From IMG/VR virus record IMGVR_UViG_3300025154_000091: a stretch of DNA of 20,000 nt. One strand, given 5' to 3'. A model generated the notes under the pieces. That model searched no databases and was not told where the DNA came from. It was given only the letters and a program-made list of their open reading frames with translations. Within the stretch, counting starts at the first letter, position 1. Each line of letters opens with the position of its first letter. The translations under genes and the position numbers were made by a program. The DNA comes from an uncultured virus (IMG/VR IMGVR_UViG_3300025154_000091). Its lineage: Duplodnaviria; Heunggongvirae; Uroviricota; Caudoviricetes. Shown piece by piece: positions 1,868 to 19,988 of the stretch.

Positions 1868-3636
1868 TTATTAGATTGCTACTCTTACTGTCGCTTCTCA
1901 GCTGTCCGGGTCTGTCTTTCGGGGCAGTTCATGATATCACCGGCCTGCCGATCACAGCTTCAGGGTGGATTGACTTTGCCACAATTACCGGGGAAGGCGC
2001 TTACGCAACCTCTCGCGTCATCTTTGTTTCCTCAACAGACGGCAATGATGGGACCGGGACACCAGACACAATCGCCAACGTCTTGTTCGATGTCTACGGG
2101 TCTTTTCAGTCAACCGGAACCATCCATCCTTACGCCACGGTAGCCGCTGGATACGCTCAACTGAGAGACGGGTATGCAGATATCCTTTTGCTCAAGAGGG
2201 GGAACAACTGGGTGACACGGTTTTCTACTGGCGGGGTTGGCAACTGGACAAAATCCGGGGCCTCGACATCTGCCAGGATGATAGTATCCAGTTACGGGAC
2301 AGGTGAGAGGGCAAAGATAACATCTGACGAAGCGGGCAACGAGGCGCTGAAGATCTACGGAGGAGACAATCTGATATTTTCCTCAGTGTGGTTTTACTGT
2401 CCAACGTGGGAGTCCAGTACCCCTGGCATAAGTGTCCTGCTCGACTCGAATGATATCCTTTTTGAGGATCTTTTTGTCGAGAAGCATTGGAAGAACGTCA
2501 TCCAGGGTGACACCGTAAACATGGGCATTTTCGTCAACAACCTTGCCATCAGGAGATCAACCTTTTCTGAGATGTCCGCCCATGATGGAATGTGGTACGC
2601 GGCAATTGCCGATAACGTCCTGTTTGAAGAGAGCATATTTTATAAGCCGCACGACCCCGACGCCCTTGCCCCTGCTGTTGAGGGTAGGCATTTTTACCTA
2701 TCACCAGACGGCCCGAATGGTGACACGCACCACGACCTCACCAATGTAGTCATGAGAGGAAACATCCTCTATTACTCCGACCGTGGGGGGGTTGACGGAA
2801 GGTCTGGAGGACTGTTCGACAACAACCTCTTCGTTCAAGCTCCTGTAAATGTCGGAGGGTTTGGCGGAAGCTCGGGATCAATCCAGTCGGGAACAGTAAT
2901 AAGAAACAATGTATTCGCAGAAGGCTCGGCAAATACCGGGGAGGGGACAAAACTCAAGCTCATCAATATGTTGAACACTGAGGTGCATCACAACATATTC
3001 ATCGACCCCGTTGGCGTAACGGCATCCACTTACGGCATAACTCTTTTAGGTGATGGAGAGGGGTTAAACTATTCGGAGAACGTCAGCATCCACGACAACG
3101 TGATGTATAACATCAAGGGGTCTGGGTCAGGGCGAGGGATTTATATTTACGGCCTCACCTCAGTTACCGGGAACAGCATCTATGATAACGATATCCAGAT
3201 GCCAGCAGGATCAACCGACCTCATCGGGGTTTACAGCACCTCAATGGCGGGCTTCAGCTTTTCCGGCAACAGATACTTTACCTCAGCCGCTGCCGGGGAC
3301 TGGTTCGAACCCGGAGGAACTGTCGCGGGATGGGTAACGGCTAGCGGGGAGACTGGGCACTCGACAACGGAAGTTGCGTACACGGATGCAACCCGGACGG
3401 TCAAGACCTACAACGTCACACTTGGAGGTACAGCCTCAACTCCAGAGTTTATGGCTGCAACGCTCGCTCAATCGCGCCAGAACTGGCAAACCGAATACAC
3501 AGCTGATGCGGTCAATGACTACATCCGGATTGGGTTTGGATTGGAGGAACAAGGCTGGGTTCCTGGTGTAGGAATGGGACTGAATGGCGCAGGTAGCATG
3601 CCACTCTCTGGTGCTGGAACGATGGGGTTGCAATAA
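1864..3636 (+). CDS. Right-handed beta-helix (pectin-lyase-like) protein; putative tailspike/depolymerase with signal peptide
   Basis: Likely start is ATG 1864 (ATGA overlap with the upstream stop), not 1768. MIIRLLLLLSLLSCPGLSFG leader. IFVSSTDGNDG...PYATV...LLLKRG pattern, then repeated Asn-ladder motifs (MRGNIL, FDNNLF, IRNNVF, VHHNIF, IHDNVM, FSGNRY). Confidence 0.8.
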   Translation: MIIRLLLLLSLLSCPGLSFGAVHDITGLPITASGWIDFATITGEGAYATSRVIFVSSTDGNDGTGTPDTIANVLFDVYGSFQSTGTIHPYATVAAGYAQLRDGYADILLLKRGNNWVTRFSTGGVGNWTKSGASTSARMIVSSYGTGERAKITSDEAGNEALKIYGGDNLIFSSVWFYCPTWESSTPGISVLLDSNDILFEDLFVEKHWKNVIQGDTVNMGIFVNNLAIRRSTFSEMSAHDGMWYAAIADNVLFEESIFYKPHDPDALAPAVEGRHFYLSPDGPNGDTHHDLTNVVMRGNILYYSDRGGVDGRSGGLFDNNLFVQAPVNVGGFGGSSGSIQSGTVIRNNVFAEGSANTGEGTKLKLINMLNTEVHHNIFIDPVGVTASTYGITLLGDGEGLNYSENVSIHDNVMYNIKGSGSGRGIYIYGLTSVTGNSIYDNDIQMPAGSTDLIGVYSTSMAGFSFSGNRYFTSAAAGDWFEPGGTVAGWVTASGETGHSTTEVAYTDATRTVKTYNVTLGGTASTPEFMAATLAQSRQNWQTEYTADAVNDYIRIGFGLEEQGWVPGVGMGLNGAGSMPLSGAGTMGLQ

Positions 3637-6872: not shown

Positions 6873-7697
6873 ATGGCAAGGAAAGAAATACGTGGTGTAT
6901 CTATCAACAGCGATGAGAGGGATGATCTTAATTCGAACTTCACTGAGCTGTATAGTAATCTTGGTATTGTGGGAGTAACCGCAAGTGCTGCTGAGCTAAA
7001 CATCCTTGATGGTGTTACTGCTACTGCAGCTGAACTTAACTATTTGGATATTGCTTCCCTCGGAACGGGAGCTGCTAGTAAGGCTGTAGTTCTTGATGCT
7101 AACTCTGATTGGACAGCTCCAGTTAATAGTGTCATTAAGTACTTCCAACTTAAAGATGCTGATGATACTCTGCTGTCTACTACCCTTGAGTATATAAACC
7201 AGAACTGTGATCCTACACTCCAGCAGATGACTCCTGGTGCTGGCTTCAAGGGTGTCAACACTATTCATAAGGTTGGTGTACGTCTCACAGGTGCTGTGAA
7301 GAAGACTGAGATCATGATCGATCTTACGGATGCTAAGTCTGTAGCTACAGATCTGGATATCATCGGTCTCTCTGGCGTATCTCATATCGGACAGATCACA
7401 GCAGCTCTGAATGGTACGGTCCTTATGGGTAAGGTCACTTGCCTTGAGGTTCCTGTAGGGGGTGCTGTTGATATCGACCTCTATACTGCTACTGAAGGTA
7501 CTGGTGCATATGATGGTCTTGTCACTGATCTTACAGAGACTGCTCTTGTAACTGCTGGTGGTAACTGGACTCTTGGTCTGGAGAAGACTATGGCTGCTGT
7601 CCCTGCTGCTAATGCTTATCTGTATCTGACTTCAGGCGCAGCTACTGCAGGTACCTACTCAGCTGGTAAGTTCTTGATTGAGTTCTGGGGATATTAA
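6873..7697 (+). CDS. Putative virion fibre/decoration protein
   Basis: AGGAG RBS. N-terminal LNSNFTELY, tandem TA(S/T)AAELNxLD repeats typical of phage fibres, Gly/Ala/Thr-rich, aromatic C-terminus. Confidence 0.65.
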   Translation: MARKEIRGVSINSDERDDLNSNFTELYSNLGIVGVTASAAELNILDGVTATAAELNYLDIASLGTGAASKAVVLDANSDWTAPVNSVIKYFQLKDADDTLLSTTLEYINQNCDPTLQQMTPGAGFKGVNTIHKVGVRLTGAVKKTEIMIDLTDAKSVATDLDIIGLSGVSHIGQITAALNGTVLMGKVTCLEVPVGGAVDIDLYTATEGTGAYDGLVTDLTETALVTAGGNWTLGLEKTMAAVPAANAYLYLTSGAATAGTYSAGKFLIEFWGY

Positions 7698-7715
7698 TAT
7701 TTATTAATCTAAACG

Positions 7716-7760
7716 CAAAAAGGCCCTATAGGTTTGATTCCTATAGGGCCTTTGTTGTTT
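7716..7760. terminator. Bidirectional rho-independent terminator between the convergent arms
   Basis: Perfect 14-bp inverted repeat AAAGGCCCTATAGG (7719-7732) / CCTATAGGGCCTTT (7740-7753) with a 7-nt loop. A-run on the left and T-rich run on the right. Confidence 0.92.
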
Positions 7761-7775
7761 GTAGTGTATTAATTC

Positions 7776-9662
7776 TTACAGTTCACACTGTCCTCCAGCA
7801 CATGCATACTCTTGTGAGGATGTAGTATTATCCTCCACCTCATAGTCCTTCAATCTTTCCCAATCAATCGTAGGAAATGTAGATGCTACTAGCTCATACT
7901 CCTCTTGTGTACATGGATTATATGGATTGATCTCATAGACTGAGCTGTCTACTGGGAAGAATGATAATCCTCCAATACAATCCCAGTTCTTCCAGACCCA
8001 AGCTTGTACCTCTGGGAAATCCTTATCAGTATAGTAGATAGTCTGACTAGGGTTACCATCGCACCAATGATCCCTATAGGTCTTCCAGAGTTCTAGCTGT
8101 TCTATAGGTCCCATATCACCCTGAGTAATAGAACCTTCAGGTGCTCTGATGGGGAAGGAGAAGTAAGTCTTATCACCTTTTATTTGATGAGGAACTCCTT
8201 GGTCTTTGAGCATCTTAGTGAGAGGGTCTTTATTATCTTGCGTAACTTTGCGGATAAAGAACTTGCTGTACCTTGGGTGCATCCCCGAACTGGAGTCGAC
8301 CAGTTGAGATACAGTACCACTAGGCTTAACAAGAGTAAGTTGCACAGAAGGACTAATGCCAAGTCTTTCAGCCCACAATCCATTAGTAGATCTTGCTTCC
8401 TCCTTTAATATAACTAACACATCTTTAAGTGTTTGCCAGGAATGGCCGGCCATGAAATGACCTCTTCCACTCATTACAGGGTGATCCATTACACCTGTAA
8501 GGCTCACACCTAATAGTCTTTCATCCTCTGCATTCTTCTTCCAAACCTTACGTATGTATCTAAAATCTGTGAGTGTGGACTGTAAGGTTCCTATGATAGT
8601 TGCAACCCTCACCTTCTCCTTCAAGGTTTCAAGAGTATCATCGGGTCTTACCACTACCTCAGTGAGATTACATAACCCACCAGAGCTACGGAGAATTGCT
8701 TCGCCGCAAGGATTCAAGATGTAGTGCATCTCAGGATCTCTACCACACTCTATAGCCTTCTGCCTTAGAGCTTCCTGATTAATCATCCCCCTCTCACCAG
8801 CCTTACTCTTATACATACTCCTGAACTCACCCAAGAAGGAATCAAGGTCAGGTCTCTCAGTGTACATTACTGAGTTGTTAGCTAAGAACCTCTGAGGATC
8901 TGTCAGGTAGAACTCTCCCGTCTTACAACGTCGCATCCTATCATCAGTAAGATTAGAAATAGAGATGCATGCAGATCTCCTAACTCCTCCCACGATAACC
9001 GTGTCAGCAATCTGACAGATGAGATCATGACACTCGAGACTATTAAGCTTCCTACCAACAGCCCTATTGAACAGCGCAACAACTTTCCTAAACAATAGAT
9101 CAAGCGGCTCCGGTCCACTACTTCTGCCTCCAAAGGTTTTAAGTCTAGCACCTGCAGGTCTCACTAAACTAAGATCCCACTTAGGTACATCTCCATTGTA
9201 CAGCAGGGCTATTAGTTCCTTTAGCGCCTTGCTCCAGCCTTCCTTACTGTCTTGAACTACAATGGTTGTATCTGTAGCATGCATATCCTCAGAGACTACA
9301 GGCATCTTAGTAATGAACTGTCTCTCTACTGAGAACCCTACACCACTACCATTCATTAGGATGTAGAAGATCTCATCGAAGGCACGAGGATGATCTATAG
9401 CGATGCCGGCACAGTTATACCCTGCAAGGTTGTCCCTCTTCAAGGCACGACCAGCAGTCATCATGGCTCTCATACTTGGCATGACTTCCATATTGTAGAT
9501 GGCATCACCTATAAGCATACCATCTGTATCATCAATCATACCTGTATCTATGAAGAACCCTACATACCTATCTACTGTTTCATCCCAAGTCTCTCTACGC
9601 TTCAGCTTATCCCTAAAGCGGGCATACTTACTAATATGAATGTAGCGCATATAGTCATTCAT
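7776..9662 (-). CDS. nrdJ: Class II (adenosylcobalamin-dependent) ribonucleotide reductase
   Basis: Motifs PSMRAM, YNC, GSGVGFS, GGVRRSA, NPCGE (thiyl Cys), CNLTE, KPSGTVSQL and C-terminal CAGGQC. No class I beta subunit is in the window. Confidence 0.9.
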   Translation of the reverse strand: MNDYMRYIHISKYARFRDKLKRRETWDETVDRYVGFFIDTGMIDDTDGMLIGDAIYNMEVMPSMRAMMTAGRALKRDNLAGYNCAGIAIDHPRAFDEIFYILMNGSGVGFSVERQFITKMPVVSEDMHATDTTIVVQDSKEGWSKALKELIALLYNGDVPKWDLSLVRPAGARLKTFGGRSSGPEPLDLLFRKVVALFNRAVGRKLNSLECHDLICQIADTVIVGGVRRSACISISNLTDDRMRRCKTGEFYLTDPQRFLANNSVMYTERPDLDSFLGEFRSMYKSKAGERGMINQEALRQKAIECGRDPEMHYILNPCGEAILRSSGGLCNLTEVVVRPDDTLETLKEKVRVATIIGTLQSTLTDFRYIRKVWKKNAEDERLLGVSLTGVMDHPVMSGRGHFMAGHSWQTLKDVLVILKEEARSTNGLWAERLGISPSVQLTLVKPSGTVSQLVDSSSGMHPRYSKFFIRKVTQDNKDPLTKMLKDQGVPHQIKGDKTYFSFPIRAPEGSITQGDMGPIEQLELWKTYRDHWCDGNPSQTIYYTDKDFPEVQAWVWKNWDCIGGLSFFPVDSSVYEINPYNPCTQEEYELVASTFPTIDWERLKDYEVEDNTTSSQEYACAGGQCEL

Positions 9663-16877: not shown

Positions 16878-17346
16878 TGCTGCCAGTACCTTCAGTCTCA
16901 TCATTGAACTCATCAGTTCCATCAACAACATCGAACTCATCAGAGTCCTGATCTCCACCACCTGCATAGGCTACAAGGTCTACGATCTGAATGGCCTGAA
17001 GGTCAGCACTCAAACCCTTCTTACCTTTATACTCCCAAGCAAACGGAGCGAACTGTACATTAACAATACTACCATTCCCGATAATACCATTGAAGGTATT
17101 CTTACCAGCATCTACTACTCGGGGTGGTGGGTTCTCACCTACTACAGCACCTGCTTTCTTCTTATCTACATTCCGTTTGAACTTGTACTCATACACATCA
17201 TCATCGTTCCGCTTCACCTTCAGCCCTGCAGCCTTTAGCTTCTTAGCTTCATCATCTGACAGCAGAAGAGTAACCCTCCAACAAGGATCAAACTTAGTAT
17301 CTGCTTGCTTGGTATAGGCCCACATTGCAATTCCAGTAGTCTTCAT
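16852..17346 (-). CDS. ssDNA-binding protein (T7 gp2.5-like)
   Basis: PRVVD...IGNGSIVNV...LQAIQIVDLVAY, acidic tail ending in Phe. Confidence 0.85.
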   Translation of the reverse strand: MKTTGIAMWAYTKQADTKFDPCWRVTLLLSDDEAKKLKAAGLKVKRNDDDVYEYKFKRNVDKKKAGAVVGENPPPRVVDAGKNTFNGIIGNGSIVNVQFAPFAWEYKGKKGLSADLQAIQIVDLVAYAGGGDQDSDEFDVVDGTDEFNDETEGTGSNDEDNEEF

Positions 17347-17873
17347 ATTGTAACTCCCATCTTTAATTGAATTTCTTTGATGATACGCTTCTTCATATAA
17401 CCAGCTTTCCTAATAGTAACCTTAGCAGCCTTGGCCACCTCAGCCTTAGGATCACTATGGATAATCAAACCATAGTATATAATTCTATCCAGTTTATCTT
17501 TAGGTGCTAGACCCTCTATGATACCATCGTAATCATCATTCTCCTCATAGTTATGTTCTGTTCTTGGTTCGTCATCAGTATCTACAAGACTATCTATAGG
17601 TACCTCGATCTCTTCTCTGCGCTGCAGCTTCTTGATGTGAGCTATCATCTCATAGCGGATACTATTAGATGCATAAGTATTAAACTGAAAGCCCCTAGCA
17701 GGATCGTACTTCAATGAAGACTTCCTCAAGGCTATCATACCTATCCCCATCAGATCTTCTCGGTGCCCTTGCCACCTCCTGTTGCGCTCTCTAGATAGGA
17801 ACTCATCTACTACGACCTCAACCATTCCGAAGAAGTCTTCACACAATTGCTTACGCTCAGTATCAGTTAAGAT
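17343..17873 (-). CDS. Sigma70-family RNA polymerase sigma-like factor
   Basis: Region 2 signature EDLMGIGMIALRKSSLKYDPARGFQFNTYASNSIR and a C-terminal HTH (KAEVAKAAKVT). Start is uncertain: ATC 17873 behind AAGGAG, or TTG 17846. Confidence 0.8.
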   Translation of the reverse strand: MLTDTERKQLCEDFFGMVEVVVDEFLSRERNRRWQGHREDLMGIGMIALRKSSLKYDPARGFQFNTYASNSIRYEMIAHIKKLQRREEIEVPIDSLVDTDDEPRTEHNYEENDDYDGIIEGLAPKDKLDRIIYYGLIIHSDPKAEVAKAAKVTIRKAGYMKKRIIKEIQLKMGVTI

Positions 17874-18016
17874 ATTGTTCTCCTTATTTTTAGCATTGTA
17901 TACCTCTTATGATTCTTCTTAACAAAGATCTGTAGATGGTTGTCTAGACGTTGATGACAGAATTTCATATTGTGCCTGTTCTCTCCACCTATGTATAAGA
18001 TGTAACAGAATCTCAT
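17867..18016 (-). CDS. 49-aa microprotein C of tandem family (not in ORF track)
   Basis: Translation MRFCYILYIGGENRHNMKFCHQRLDNHLQIFVKKNHKRYTMLKIRRTIS. ATGA overlap with the upstream ORF. Confidence 0.65.
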   Translation of the reverse strand: MRFCYILYIGGENRHNMKFCHQRLDNHLQIFVKKNHKRYTMLKIRRTIS

Positions 18017-18162
18017 ATCACCCTCTTAATCTTTAGTATCTTATAAGTACTAGGTCTCCCTAATACATAATCTACAAGACGACCACCATCTAGACTATCT
18101 ACAAGGATGACTCTGTTATCCCTACCCTCATTACTTAGGTAGATAATAAAATACTTTCTCAT
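18013..18162 (-). CDS. 49-aa microprotein B of tandem family (not in ORF track)
   Basis: Translation MRKYFIIYLSNEGRDNRVILVDSLDGGRLVDYVLGRPSTYKILKIKRVI. Confidence 0.65.
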   Translation of the reverse strand: MRKYFIIYLSNEGRDNRVILVDSLDGGRLVDYVLGRPSTYKILKIKRVI

Positions 18163-18196
18163 ATCATTAAGACTCTATTTATTATATAGTAACTCA

Positions 18197-18358
18197 TCAC
18201 TCGATTGTCCTCCGAATCTTTAAGGTAGTATAGAACATTCTTCCAGACTTTGAGTCTAGGTAAGGGCCTGTAGTCCTATCATCTGGGAGAATATATAGAG
18301 GAACCACTGACCTACCTGTTCGTTCAACACCCTCTAACATGATTAAGAATCGTCTCAT
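18197..18358 (-). CDS. 53-aa microprotein A of tandem family
   Basis: ATG 18358 overlaps the HNH stop (TGATG) with GAGGTG RBS. Translation MRRFLIMLEG...FYTTLKIRRTIE. Confidence 0.65.
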   Translation of the reverse strand: MRRFLIMLEGVERTGRSVVPLYILPDDRTTGPYLDSKSGRMFYTTLKIRRTIE

Positions 18359-18828
18359 CAATGCACCTCTGCCCAATTTTTTCCAGAAAGTATTCCAGCT
18401 ATCGCTCCTGATGGGTATCCGAAAAAGACTAAACACTTTCTCCTATACCCTATTGATATTAAAAGTTTTATATCCCTTACCTCATCTTCTGTCAGTAAAG
18501 CTCTAGAGTTTCTAACACCCTTAGCAGATCTATTACCTAAGCTATAAGAGTGTTTTATATTCTCACTATGAGATACCCACCTAAGATTATCTACACTATT
18601 GTTCAATCGAACACCATCAATATGATCTACATCTGAGAAATGATATGGGTTTGGGAGATAAACCTCTGCCACTAATCTGTGTACAGCCTTACACACCCTA
18701 CCCCTATCGGTGTTTATATTTACAGTAAGATAACCTCTCCCATTATCGGAAGATTTTATTAACTTACCAAACTTATTAAACACCTCTCCATCTTTTGTTA
18801 CATGATACGAGTAATAGTTTGAGATCAT
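18358..18828 (-). CDS. HNH homing endonuclease (NUMOD4/HNH_3 type)
   Basis: Y.VTKDGEV, GYLTV, VHRLVAEVYLPNP, VDHIDGVRLNNSVDNLRWVSHSEN and a C-terminal HTH-like segment. Confidence 0.9.
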   Translation of the reverse strand: MISNYYSYHVTKDGEVFNKFGKLIKSSDNGRGYLTVNINTDRGRVCKAVHRLVAEVYLPNPYHFSDVDHIDGVRLNNSVDNLRWVSHSENIKHSYSLGNRSAKGVRNSRALLTEDEVRDIKLLISIGYRRKCLVFFGYPSGAIAGILSGKNWAEVH

Positions 18829-18850
18829 AGCACACCACACTTGAGTTTAG

Positions 18851-18879
18851 ATTATAATACATTAGAGTATCCTTACGAA
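18851..18879 (-). promoter_or_regulatory. Putative sigma70-type promoter for the HNH gene
   Basis: On the - strand: TTCGTA, 17-nt spacer, TATAAT, within the polA-HNH gap. Confidence 0.45.
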
Positions 18880-18902
18880 CTATAATCTATATAGTGTGAT
18901 GA

Positions 18903-19988
18903 TTAGTGAACGTCGGCCCAGGTCATCCCTATTTTCACATCAGCATCTATAGGTACTATAAGATTGAGCTGACCTTGGACCATGTTAGCACCAAGCTTTA
19001 TAATCTTTGAAGCTTCTTCAGCATGCTCAGGTAAGCACCTATAAGCGGCCTCATCGTGGTATTCCAGCATCTGCCTACAATAAATACCAGTACCCTCAAG
19101 CATTTTATTAGTATTTATTAACCACATCTTAAAGATTAGAGCTGCTGTAGATTGTATAGCTGTATTAAGAAGCTTATACTCTTGTCTAACTTGAATCTTC
19201 CTACCATCAAGCCCGACTATATACTTATTCTTCTTGAAGAACTTGGACAAGTAGTCGACAACCATCTTTACTCCTAGATTGCCAGACCAAAATGAGTCTA
19301 TATATTCTTCAGCTTTCTCTTCTGAACAACCAAGAATCCTTGAGAGCTTAGGAGCTCTGGCTCCGTAGAATATTGCATACTGAAAACTCTTCGCAACATC
19401 CCTAGTATTCTGTATAAGATCGGCATTATATTGGTGAAGATCAGGGACCGAATTGATAACATTCCAGTAGGCACCACCATCAAAGAGAGATGCCCAGTGT
19501 GCTGTAACTCTTGCCTCTATCTGAGCAAGGTCAGCACCTATCATCACATAAGGGTCCCACACCCTGAAGAGTGATCGCATCTCCCTACCATAGATGACAG
19601 ACTTCTTAGCCTTTGGAACATTACATACAGCACCACTGTGTGTGGTCCTTCCTGTTGGGGTAGCACAAGGCATACCATCTGCAGTCACTCTACCATCCGA
19701 GCGTACCTTAGATAGGATGCCCTTATTCTCAGGATCCTTTAGGTTCTCGATAGTTCTCCTTCTGTGTACAAGGACGTTTCTTCGAGCAACTAACTGGCCT
19801 AACTCACCCTTAATAGATCCGAAGGAATCTTCAGTGAGCTTTGGGGATGTAGGTTCCTTAGTCTTCTTATCTATATTCCACTGAGTAGGAACCCAACCAA
19901 CAGAAAGTAAGAATGCTTTTACTTGTTCGTGACTGTTGAGATTGATTCGTTCGTACTTGATCTTACAGTATGGTCCACGAATATTCAT
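18903..19988 (-). CDS. polA: Family A DNA polymerase, polymerase domain only (T7-like)
   Basis: TPTGRTTH, NVP, motif A GADLAQIEAR, motif B RDVAKSFQYAIFYG (Tyr at the E. coli F762 position), LNTAIQS, motif C HDE, and C-terminal WADVH. Confidence 0.93.
   Translation of the reverse strand: MNIRGPYCKIKYERINLNSHEQVKAFLLSVGWVPTQWNIDKKTKEPTSPKLTEDSFGSIKGELGQLVARRNVLVHRRRTIENLKDPENKGILSKVRSDGRVTADGMPCATPTGRTTHSGAVCNVPKAKKSVIYGREMRSLFRVWDPYVMIGADLAQIEARVTAHWASLFDGGAYWNVINSVPDLHQYNADLIQNTRDVAKSFQYAIFYGARAPKLSRILGCSEEKAEEYIDSFWSGNLGVKMVVDYLSKFFKKNKYIVGLDGRKIQVRQEYKLLNTAIQSTAALIFKMWLINTNKMLEGTGIYCRQMLEYHDEAAYRCLPEHAEEASKIIKLGANMVQGQLNLIVPIDADVKIGMTWADVH

Follow-up and report, generated by a model that had tools for sequence, protein, structure and literature searches.

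The window, the whole 20-kb stretch of DNA that was analysed, forms the last 20 kb of a single 64,520-bp contig (G000 C1) of an uncultured phage. On the minus strand are genes for a family A polymerase, an HNH protein, a sigma-70-type factor, an SSB and an exonuclease, together with three small open reading frames (ORFs A, B and C); the features around the small ORFs are collected in Table 1. The window polymerase has no more than 33% identity to the isolate phage matches listed. The HNH protein ends in W-A-E-V-H (18358-18375, minus strand) and the polymerase in W-A-D-V-H (18903-18920, minus strand), and the polymerase of an allele lacking the HNH gene ends in W-A-E-V-H.

Table 1. Features of the polymerase-to-sigma region, in window coordinates
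Feature	Coordinates	Strand	Remarks
Family A DNA polymerase gene (polymerase half)	18903..19988	-	Profile match; flanks the slot of A, B and C upstream
HNH endonuclease gene	18358..18840	-	Pfam and PHROGs matches; upstream of A and provides its Shine-Dalgarno (SD) site; missing in alleles L002 and L014
A	18197..18358	-	Family member, 53 aa; its start and the HNH stop overlap (TGATG)
Junction 1	18195..18223	-	From the conserved Leu of A through its remaining tail codons, with the SD and the overlap of stop and start
Bridge ORF	18159..18200	-	13 codons, between A and B; likely a re-initiation linker
B	18013..18162	-	Family member, 49 aa; lacking in alleles L002 and L014
Junction 2	18013..18036	-	B tail codons with the SD for C and the ATGA overlap
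C	17867..18016	-	49-aa family member; predicted strand-helix-strand
Junction 3	17867..17893	-	C tail codons with AGGAG and the overlap onto the inferred start of sigma; both co-occurring alleles rejoin here (shared contigs end at 17887 and 17895)
Phage sigma-70-type factor	17343..17873	-	PF04542 and phrog_351; start at ATC 17873 inferred, TTG 17846 is the first standard start

The polymerase-to-sigma region is repeated at both ends of the contig (C1:1-2182 versus 62302-64520) with 76-86% identity, and both versions are found side by side in public contigs, rejoining at 17887-17895. The end repeat and the co-occurring public alleles suggest that the contig joins two co-occurring strains and is thus likely to be a two-strain chimera. 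The window allele itself is found on single public contigs, over 17858-19987 with no differences and over 17866-19854 with one; these contigs carry a groundwater metagenome label, come from one study and are possibly the window's own source. At C1:1514-2182 (L001) the polymerase 5' end is present in two copies (a 43-bp repeat), with a 186-aa endonuclease-like ORF between them. Further repeats at C1:14034-14187, C1:28382-28552 and window positions 7695-7778 comprise two long inverted repeats resembling hairpins, a tandem duplication of 87 bp and, between the convergent gene blocks, another inverted repeat.

The coordinates, translations and lengths of the three tandem ORFs in the preliminary description are all correct, and the 13-codon ORF said to bridge A to B through GTGA and ATGA overlaps is present in the sequence. 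The SD-like words reported within the tail codons of A, B and C are also there; paired with a generic anti-SD motif, which may not be that of the host, they give duplex energies of -9.5, -6.3 and -8.2. The whole-protein similarity of A, B and C is well above that of shuffled sequences (z of 4.8-8.6), and aligning the A-group profile with that of the B/C group gives 90.6% over 46 columns, to which the ends contribute in part. The middles had been called unrelated, which is so for A and C (p = 0.50) but not for B and C (z = 2.65, p = 0.011); A and B give p = 0.071 (1000 shuffles). The second residue of the common Met-Arg start is partly dictated by the ATGA overlap. The three ORFs are paralogues, and their array is not a unit of three; it is a single slot within a genome-wide family.

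In a six-frame search of G000 the same ending turned up throughout the replication block. The contig and the window allele together hold about 19 intact copies (one of them doubtful) and two broken ones, or about 20 per genome. The broken members lie at C1 ~9070-9230 and 7367-7500 (L001); the former is intact in L006 and L009, where it encodes 55 aa with two Cys pairs, and the latter has no counterpart in L006. With near relatives included there are 69 distinct ORFs of 41-76 aa in ~43 orthogroups (70 candidates less one false row, a frame within the helicase gene at L003:5689-5865). The alignment used for profiles (A2) has 55 rows, among them L014:1028-1168, and represents 54 of the 69 ORFs, near-duplicates and odd bodies having been trimmed. 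The common tail is not a matter of chance: a pattern describing it, written after the sequences had been inspected, ends three of the five frames of 30 or more codons in the slot and 18 of the 61 in the replication block, against 0 of 836 elsewhere in the genome. A list of 120 coupled small-ORF ends drawn up without reference to the motif contains 54 with the tail, every one inside the replication block, and a DNA matrix trained solely on relatives had all of its top 20 matches on the coding strand, each followed by a stop 7-8 codons past the conserved Leu. All copies are located between the ATP-grasp gene and the sigma gene, with none among the small early genes.

A second lineage, with a polymerase 62% identical, carries the family in the same slots. 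Its members rank as the top six of 8,237 ORFs from 103 loci when scored with the first-lineage profile, and with the tails masked 7 of the 16 second-lineage bodies match first-lineage bodies (p ≤ 0.03); a family profile without the tail gives the three best second-lineage members E values of just 0.23-1.2. In both lineages family members sit between the exonuclease-like and polymerase genes into which the polymerase is split (G000 C1 ~2177-3342; L055, L057). Beyond these lineages, 22 other amidotransferase-bearing loci and three distant polymerase loci have 0-1 tail-like ends each, and 77 of 79 polymerase loci have 0-2 scattered ones, a weak form of absence as many of these loci are short or do not extend over the slots. 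The family has been found only in the replication block of one uncultured phage and its relatives.

The slot differs between alleles by whole genes, as the proposal of copy-number variation in relatives had anticipated. The window reads HNH-A-bridge-B-C, L002 reads X-bridge-C', L014 reads A'-D-bridge-C''-E-F and L003 has HNH and three other members. B is missing in L002, where the join falls at TGATATGAGA, which is common to both flanking junctions. Numbering the tail from the conserved Leu as position 0, pairs with the same body and a different next gene (n = 14) have an identity of 0.74-0.93 through +1 and fall to background at +5 and +6 (0.36 and 0.48 versus 0.37 and 0.54), while in pairs that share the next gene and differ in body (n = 35) the identity is close to background ahead of position 0 and rises to 0.83 at +6/+7; the pairs are not independent, the latter class contains diverged orthologues and three end patterns were dropped beforehand. 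Compared in this way, the alleles show presence or absence of whole genes with switch points inside the tail, and the tail is likely to be the crossover site for gene swaps. The description of a cassette-like paralogous family is supported.

The translation signals would form a chain. A has a strong SD (-9.5) in the end of the HNH gene, the bridge ORF start is served by the tail of A and the start of C by the tail of B. A bridge ORF of 12-13 codons is kept in four alleles (window, L002, L014 and L003), likely because the gene that follows it has almost no SD of its own (-2.1 to -2.4 in the window, L002 and L014). The proposed coupled relay into the sigma gene agrees with the overlaps and SD placement, but the SD of C cannot serve the TTG at 17846; it fits the ATC at 17873. 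The sigma frame has no ATG near the AGGAG of C, and an ATC lies 6 nt past the AGGAG in the window, L002 and L014; in L003 an ATG follows one codon further on, and the window's TTG corresponds to TTA. The codons from the ATC to the first TTG have four synonymous differences and one amino-acid difference between the window and L014. The sigma gene is thus likely to start at the non-standard ATC 17873, aided by the overlap with the end of C, and such a start could keep sigma translation low.

The family members are under purifying selection as proteins. Over 21 orthologue pairs the dN/dS is 0.26, against 1.05 and 1.25 for shifted frames of the same DNA; the pairs were chosen by protein likeness and tail pattern and share members, which biases the values somewhat low, and the equal lengths of the orthologous reading frames are a consequence of this selection. 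The family ORFs are therefore real genes. By part, the dN/dS is 0.12 for the N-terminus, 0.29 for the middle, 0.26 for positions -3..+2 and 0.40 for the last residues, compared with 0.05-0.18 for core phage genes. A differs from its L014 orthologue by 12 synonymous and four amino-acid differences (dN/dS of 0.09) and C has a dN/dS of 0.23 against the other allele; B has no orthologue among the 69 family ORFs and hence no value. There is no average sign of positive selection over the 21 pairs and the middles, at 0.29, do not bear out the term `diversifying' if positive selection is meant by it; their diversity therefore comes from old divergence and gene turnover.

The proteins resemble little else. 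A, B and C match no family at E ≤ 1 in Pfam or PHROGs. The best E values for 55 members are 0.0013 in Pfam (two members, to an unrelated fungal domain), 0.057 in PHROGs and 0.0075 in PADLOC (one member), and a PDB sequence search gave no matches at E ≤ 10. A homologue search with C alone returned only C. The 55-member profile retrieved members of its own clade and two long proteins, one of 756 aa and repetitive and the other of 3017 aa with 45 matched stretches, which were deemed to be chance matches; the word-indexed database search was confined to one length class. In the ESM Atlas the best score for B was 0.83, to unnamed clusters and in the chance range, and C had no usable named match. 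Across Pfam, PHROGs, PADLOC, PDB and the protein and locus searches no relatives were found outside the two phage lineages. The main texts of the largely non-subscription literature searched give no description of such a family, and genome scans for the host returned nothing useful. A small ORF that is not a member (L057:10105-10338) is the top match to the family profile without the tail (E of 0.02) and is DUF7336-like with a Pfam E of 0.0005, below the cut-off; it is possibly a distant relative of the scaffold.

The model of C, built from eight sequences (pLDDT 69, pTM 0.45), has strands at residues 3-8 and 39-44 and a helix at 26-34, with the last five residues outside the strand; the pairing of the strands is read from secondary-structure letters rather than contacts. 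The division between strand and free end in this model matches that between a protein-constrained strand and an SD-coded overhang. Fold searches with the model gave a best Z of 3.9 and no Foldseek match at E ≤ 0.001. The model of A (pLDDT 45) is unusable and has no helix. Most members have a hydrophobic run at residues 3-8 and an internal basic-x-hydrophobic run, and bodies are weakly alike across orthogroups (mean z of 0.68; 0.31 for the middles). A putative common fold is likely.

The reading that we favour, and would trust about as far as we would doubt it, is that the family is a library of accessory cassettes built on one small beta scaffold, in which coupled promoter-less genes recombine at their junctions and carry inserts aimed at host targets. 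The first strand, the internal R-x-hydrophobic strand and the tail strand would make up one scaffold with two variable inserts, the shared ~25-nt tail being predicted to close the small beta-sheet. The genes would be read as coupled chains between core genes, ending at the weak, ATC-started sigma gene. Recombination between any two junctions would add or remove a gene and leave the next one with a working SD and start. The genetic part of this reading is well supported; the assignment of the proteins as accessory host-interaction factors, in counter-defence or host take-over, is by analogy only. A more specific version is put forward tentatively and is, in our view, some way from probable: the ~25-nt junction may serve at once as docking or fold-closing strand, as the next ribosome-binding site (RBS) and as recombination arm, such that 20 or more effectors on one scaffold would address one common host partner and be retuned by whole-gene swaps within the replication operon.

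Another possibility, which we consider rather unlikely, is that the tail strand is a portable docking tag and the bodies are payloads. The tag might extend a sheet of a single partner and present basic side chains to it, as the inhibitor T7 Gp2 does with RNA polymerase, or might be a targeting signal like the capsid targeting sequence (CTS) of T4. The profiles of the two lineages align over the last 17 columns only, that is, in the tail alone, and bodies of 39-96 aa, Cys-rich and acidic ones included, end in it. Gp2 is a small protein whose last strand has two basic residues one apart, and C is predicted to be strand-helix-strand; by eye, Leu-Lys-Ile-Arg aligns with T55-R56-V57-R58 of Gp2, a strand that is described as extending the beta' jaw sheet (PMC3778932). 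Against this, position +1 is variable (K, T, R, L, I or V), +4 can be E, P or H, and the first hydrophobic strand is as well conserved (dN/dS of 0.12), which fits a shared scaffold. Homology to Gp2 was rejected: the hhalign comparisons gave 0.5% and 0.3%, and there is no Pfam, PHROG or PDB sequence match to it. Gp2, with a fold of three strands and a helix, is not among the fold-search matches listed for the C model (pLDDT 69). It differs in being a single gene and in an acidic strip that is not seen in A, B and C (PMC3778932). The T-even internal proteins are small, accessory and share a terminal peptide, and IPI and IPIII counter host defences; their CTS comprises the ten N-terminal residues and is cut off by the prohead protease (PMC9026906 and PMC9391042). 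The family members have no N-terminal capsid targeting sequence, Met1 being the sole invariant N-terminal residue; the peptide that they have in common lies at the C-terminus, where it overlaps an RBS, and is present ~20 times.

We give little credence to the idea that the proteins act on the phage itself, as regulators of its replication operon or replisome (polymerase, SSB and sigma), rather than on the host. It would explain the confinement of every copy to the stretch ending at the sigma gene, the retention of the slots in the second lineage and the net basic charge of most members. Gene content nevertheless turns over in co-occurring strains with a near-identical sigma gene, and the polymerase-sigma slot of L052 has no member.

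Similarly improbable as a whole is the view that the ORFs are near-neutral coupling spacers, whose tail arose as a by-product of SD and ATGA overlap and was spread by duplication. It accounts for the K/R-R part of the tail: the next start is 20 nt past the Leu in 42 of the 69 rows, the mean SD energy in the +3/+4 zone is -7.1, Arg codons in the tail are nearly all AGR, and with a shifted start register Arg(+4) gives way to Glu, Pro or His. This part is likely to be largely the SD site of the next gene, and a larger share of the tail may be driven by the RBS than is credited here, as the K-V codons (AAG-GT) are also able to provide a second-register SD (-3.8 to -5.9). The Leu/Ile-Val core and the last residue behave differently. 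Positions 0..+2 pair weakly with the anti-SD (mean of -2.2) and change silently: Leu(0) has six silent changes and one L/F replacement, position +2 has seven silent changes and five replacements that are all I/V, and +1 has three and five, with four of the latter K/R. The synonymous difference at -3..+2 (0.42) equals that of the middles (0.44), and 33 of the 43 orthogroups have a hydrophobic or aromatic residue at -3. Seven-codon tails without the RTGA overlap end in L, V, I or Y in 18 of 18 cases in one count and in L or I in 10 of 10 in another. In the second lineage the next start lies at offsets of 11-27 nt or is missing and L-x-[IV]-K is kept, although these positions, unlike the last residue, belonged to the search pattern. 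The motif is also kept in nine of the 69 rows (eight genes) with a weak SD or none, one of them without a coupled start; 13 `control' junctions are excluded from the count, as they were defined by not matching the tail pattern. Coupled small ORFs outside the replication block end otherwise, and dN/dS over whole genes is 0.26. Conservation at the protein level is thus shown for the Y-x-x-L-x-[IV] part of the tail, in particular Leu(0) and Ile/Val(+2), and for the hydrophobic residue at its end. The RBS view is largely refuted for the core and last residue and holds for the K/R-R part, and RBS constraint does not fully explain the similarity, the alternative that the preliminary description had itself raised, given the dN/dS values, the silent changes at the core and the tails free of RTGA.

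It is very unlikely that the tail is a C-terminal degron of the ClpX C-motif-2 type, with the members as short-lived proteins, protease decoys or adaptors. Most tails have basic residues followed by a non-polar free C-terminus, and such basic-basic-x-hydrophobic ends resemble the MuA degron RRKKAI (PMC8138137 and PMC12723719); however, between 0 and 12 residues follow +4, some ends are acidic, shortened, extended or without the second basic residue, and the best-kept residues are in the predicted strand and not at the free end. Least credible of all is a DNA or RNA element (a promoter or PeSL-like cassette) with an incidental peptide: there is a third-position bias, with CTA or TTA in 28 of 40 Leu codons, and the repeat does behave as a homology arm, but synonymous sites vary freely, no conserved upstream box occurs to -75 in 43 orthogroups, promoter-like sites (6 versus 7.7 expected) and terminator-like sites (1 versus 0.9) over 17000-19200 are at chance, and each of the 20 best DNA matches lies in frame and has its stop.

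The cassette reading has its closest parallel in the PeSL cassettes of the hyperplastic regions of T4-type phages, where intergenic sigma-70 promoters are accompanied by stem-loops (Arbiol et al., 2010, PMC2839356). There too, small genes without homologues are gained, lost or replaced through repeated junctions that include an SD and a start codon, and gain and loss between junction repeats is present here as judged from the comparison of strains. The junctions of the window have no intergenic space and no sigma-70-like promoter above chance over 17000-19200, and the one terminator-like stem-loop site in this slot lies inside the HNH gene. The repeat here, in contrast to what is described for PeSLs (PMC2839356), is ~25 nt of coding sequence, and the genes are paralogues in coupled chains placed between core replication genes. 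In T4, short homologies of 6-10 bp suffice for the gain and loss of counter-defence genes; these are unique and incidental, whereas here one junction recurs in register with stop and start (PMC9391042). The shuffling of accessory genes as cassettes is of a kind already known; the protein family is new.

Phage accessory genes are mostly unrelated singletons, which makes their functions hard to test. With some 20 paralogues in each genome and over 40 orthogroups from a few strains, joined by one junction and a putative scaffold, the family offers a ready panel for structure determination, pull-downs and counter-defence screens. The silent-change counts, the tails free of overlap and the switch-point profile can be reused wherever a protein signal has to be separated from a by-product of the RBS. 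For the phage itself, the junction shows how genes could be added to or dropped from an essential operon with the translation of the next gene left intact.
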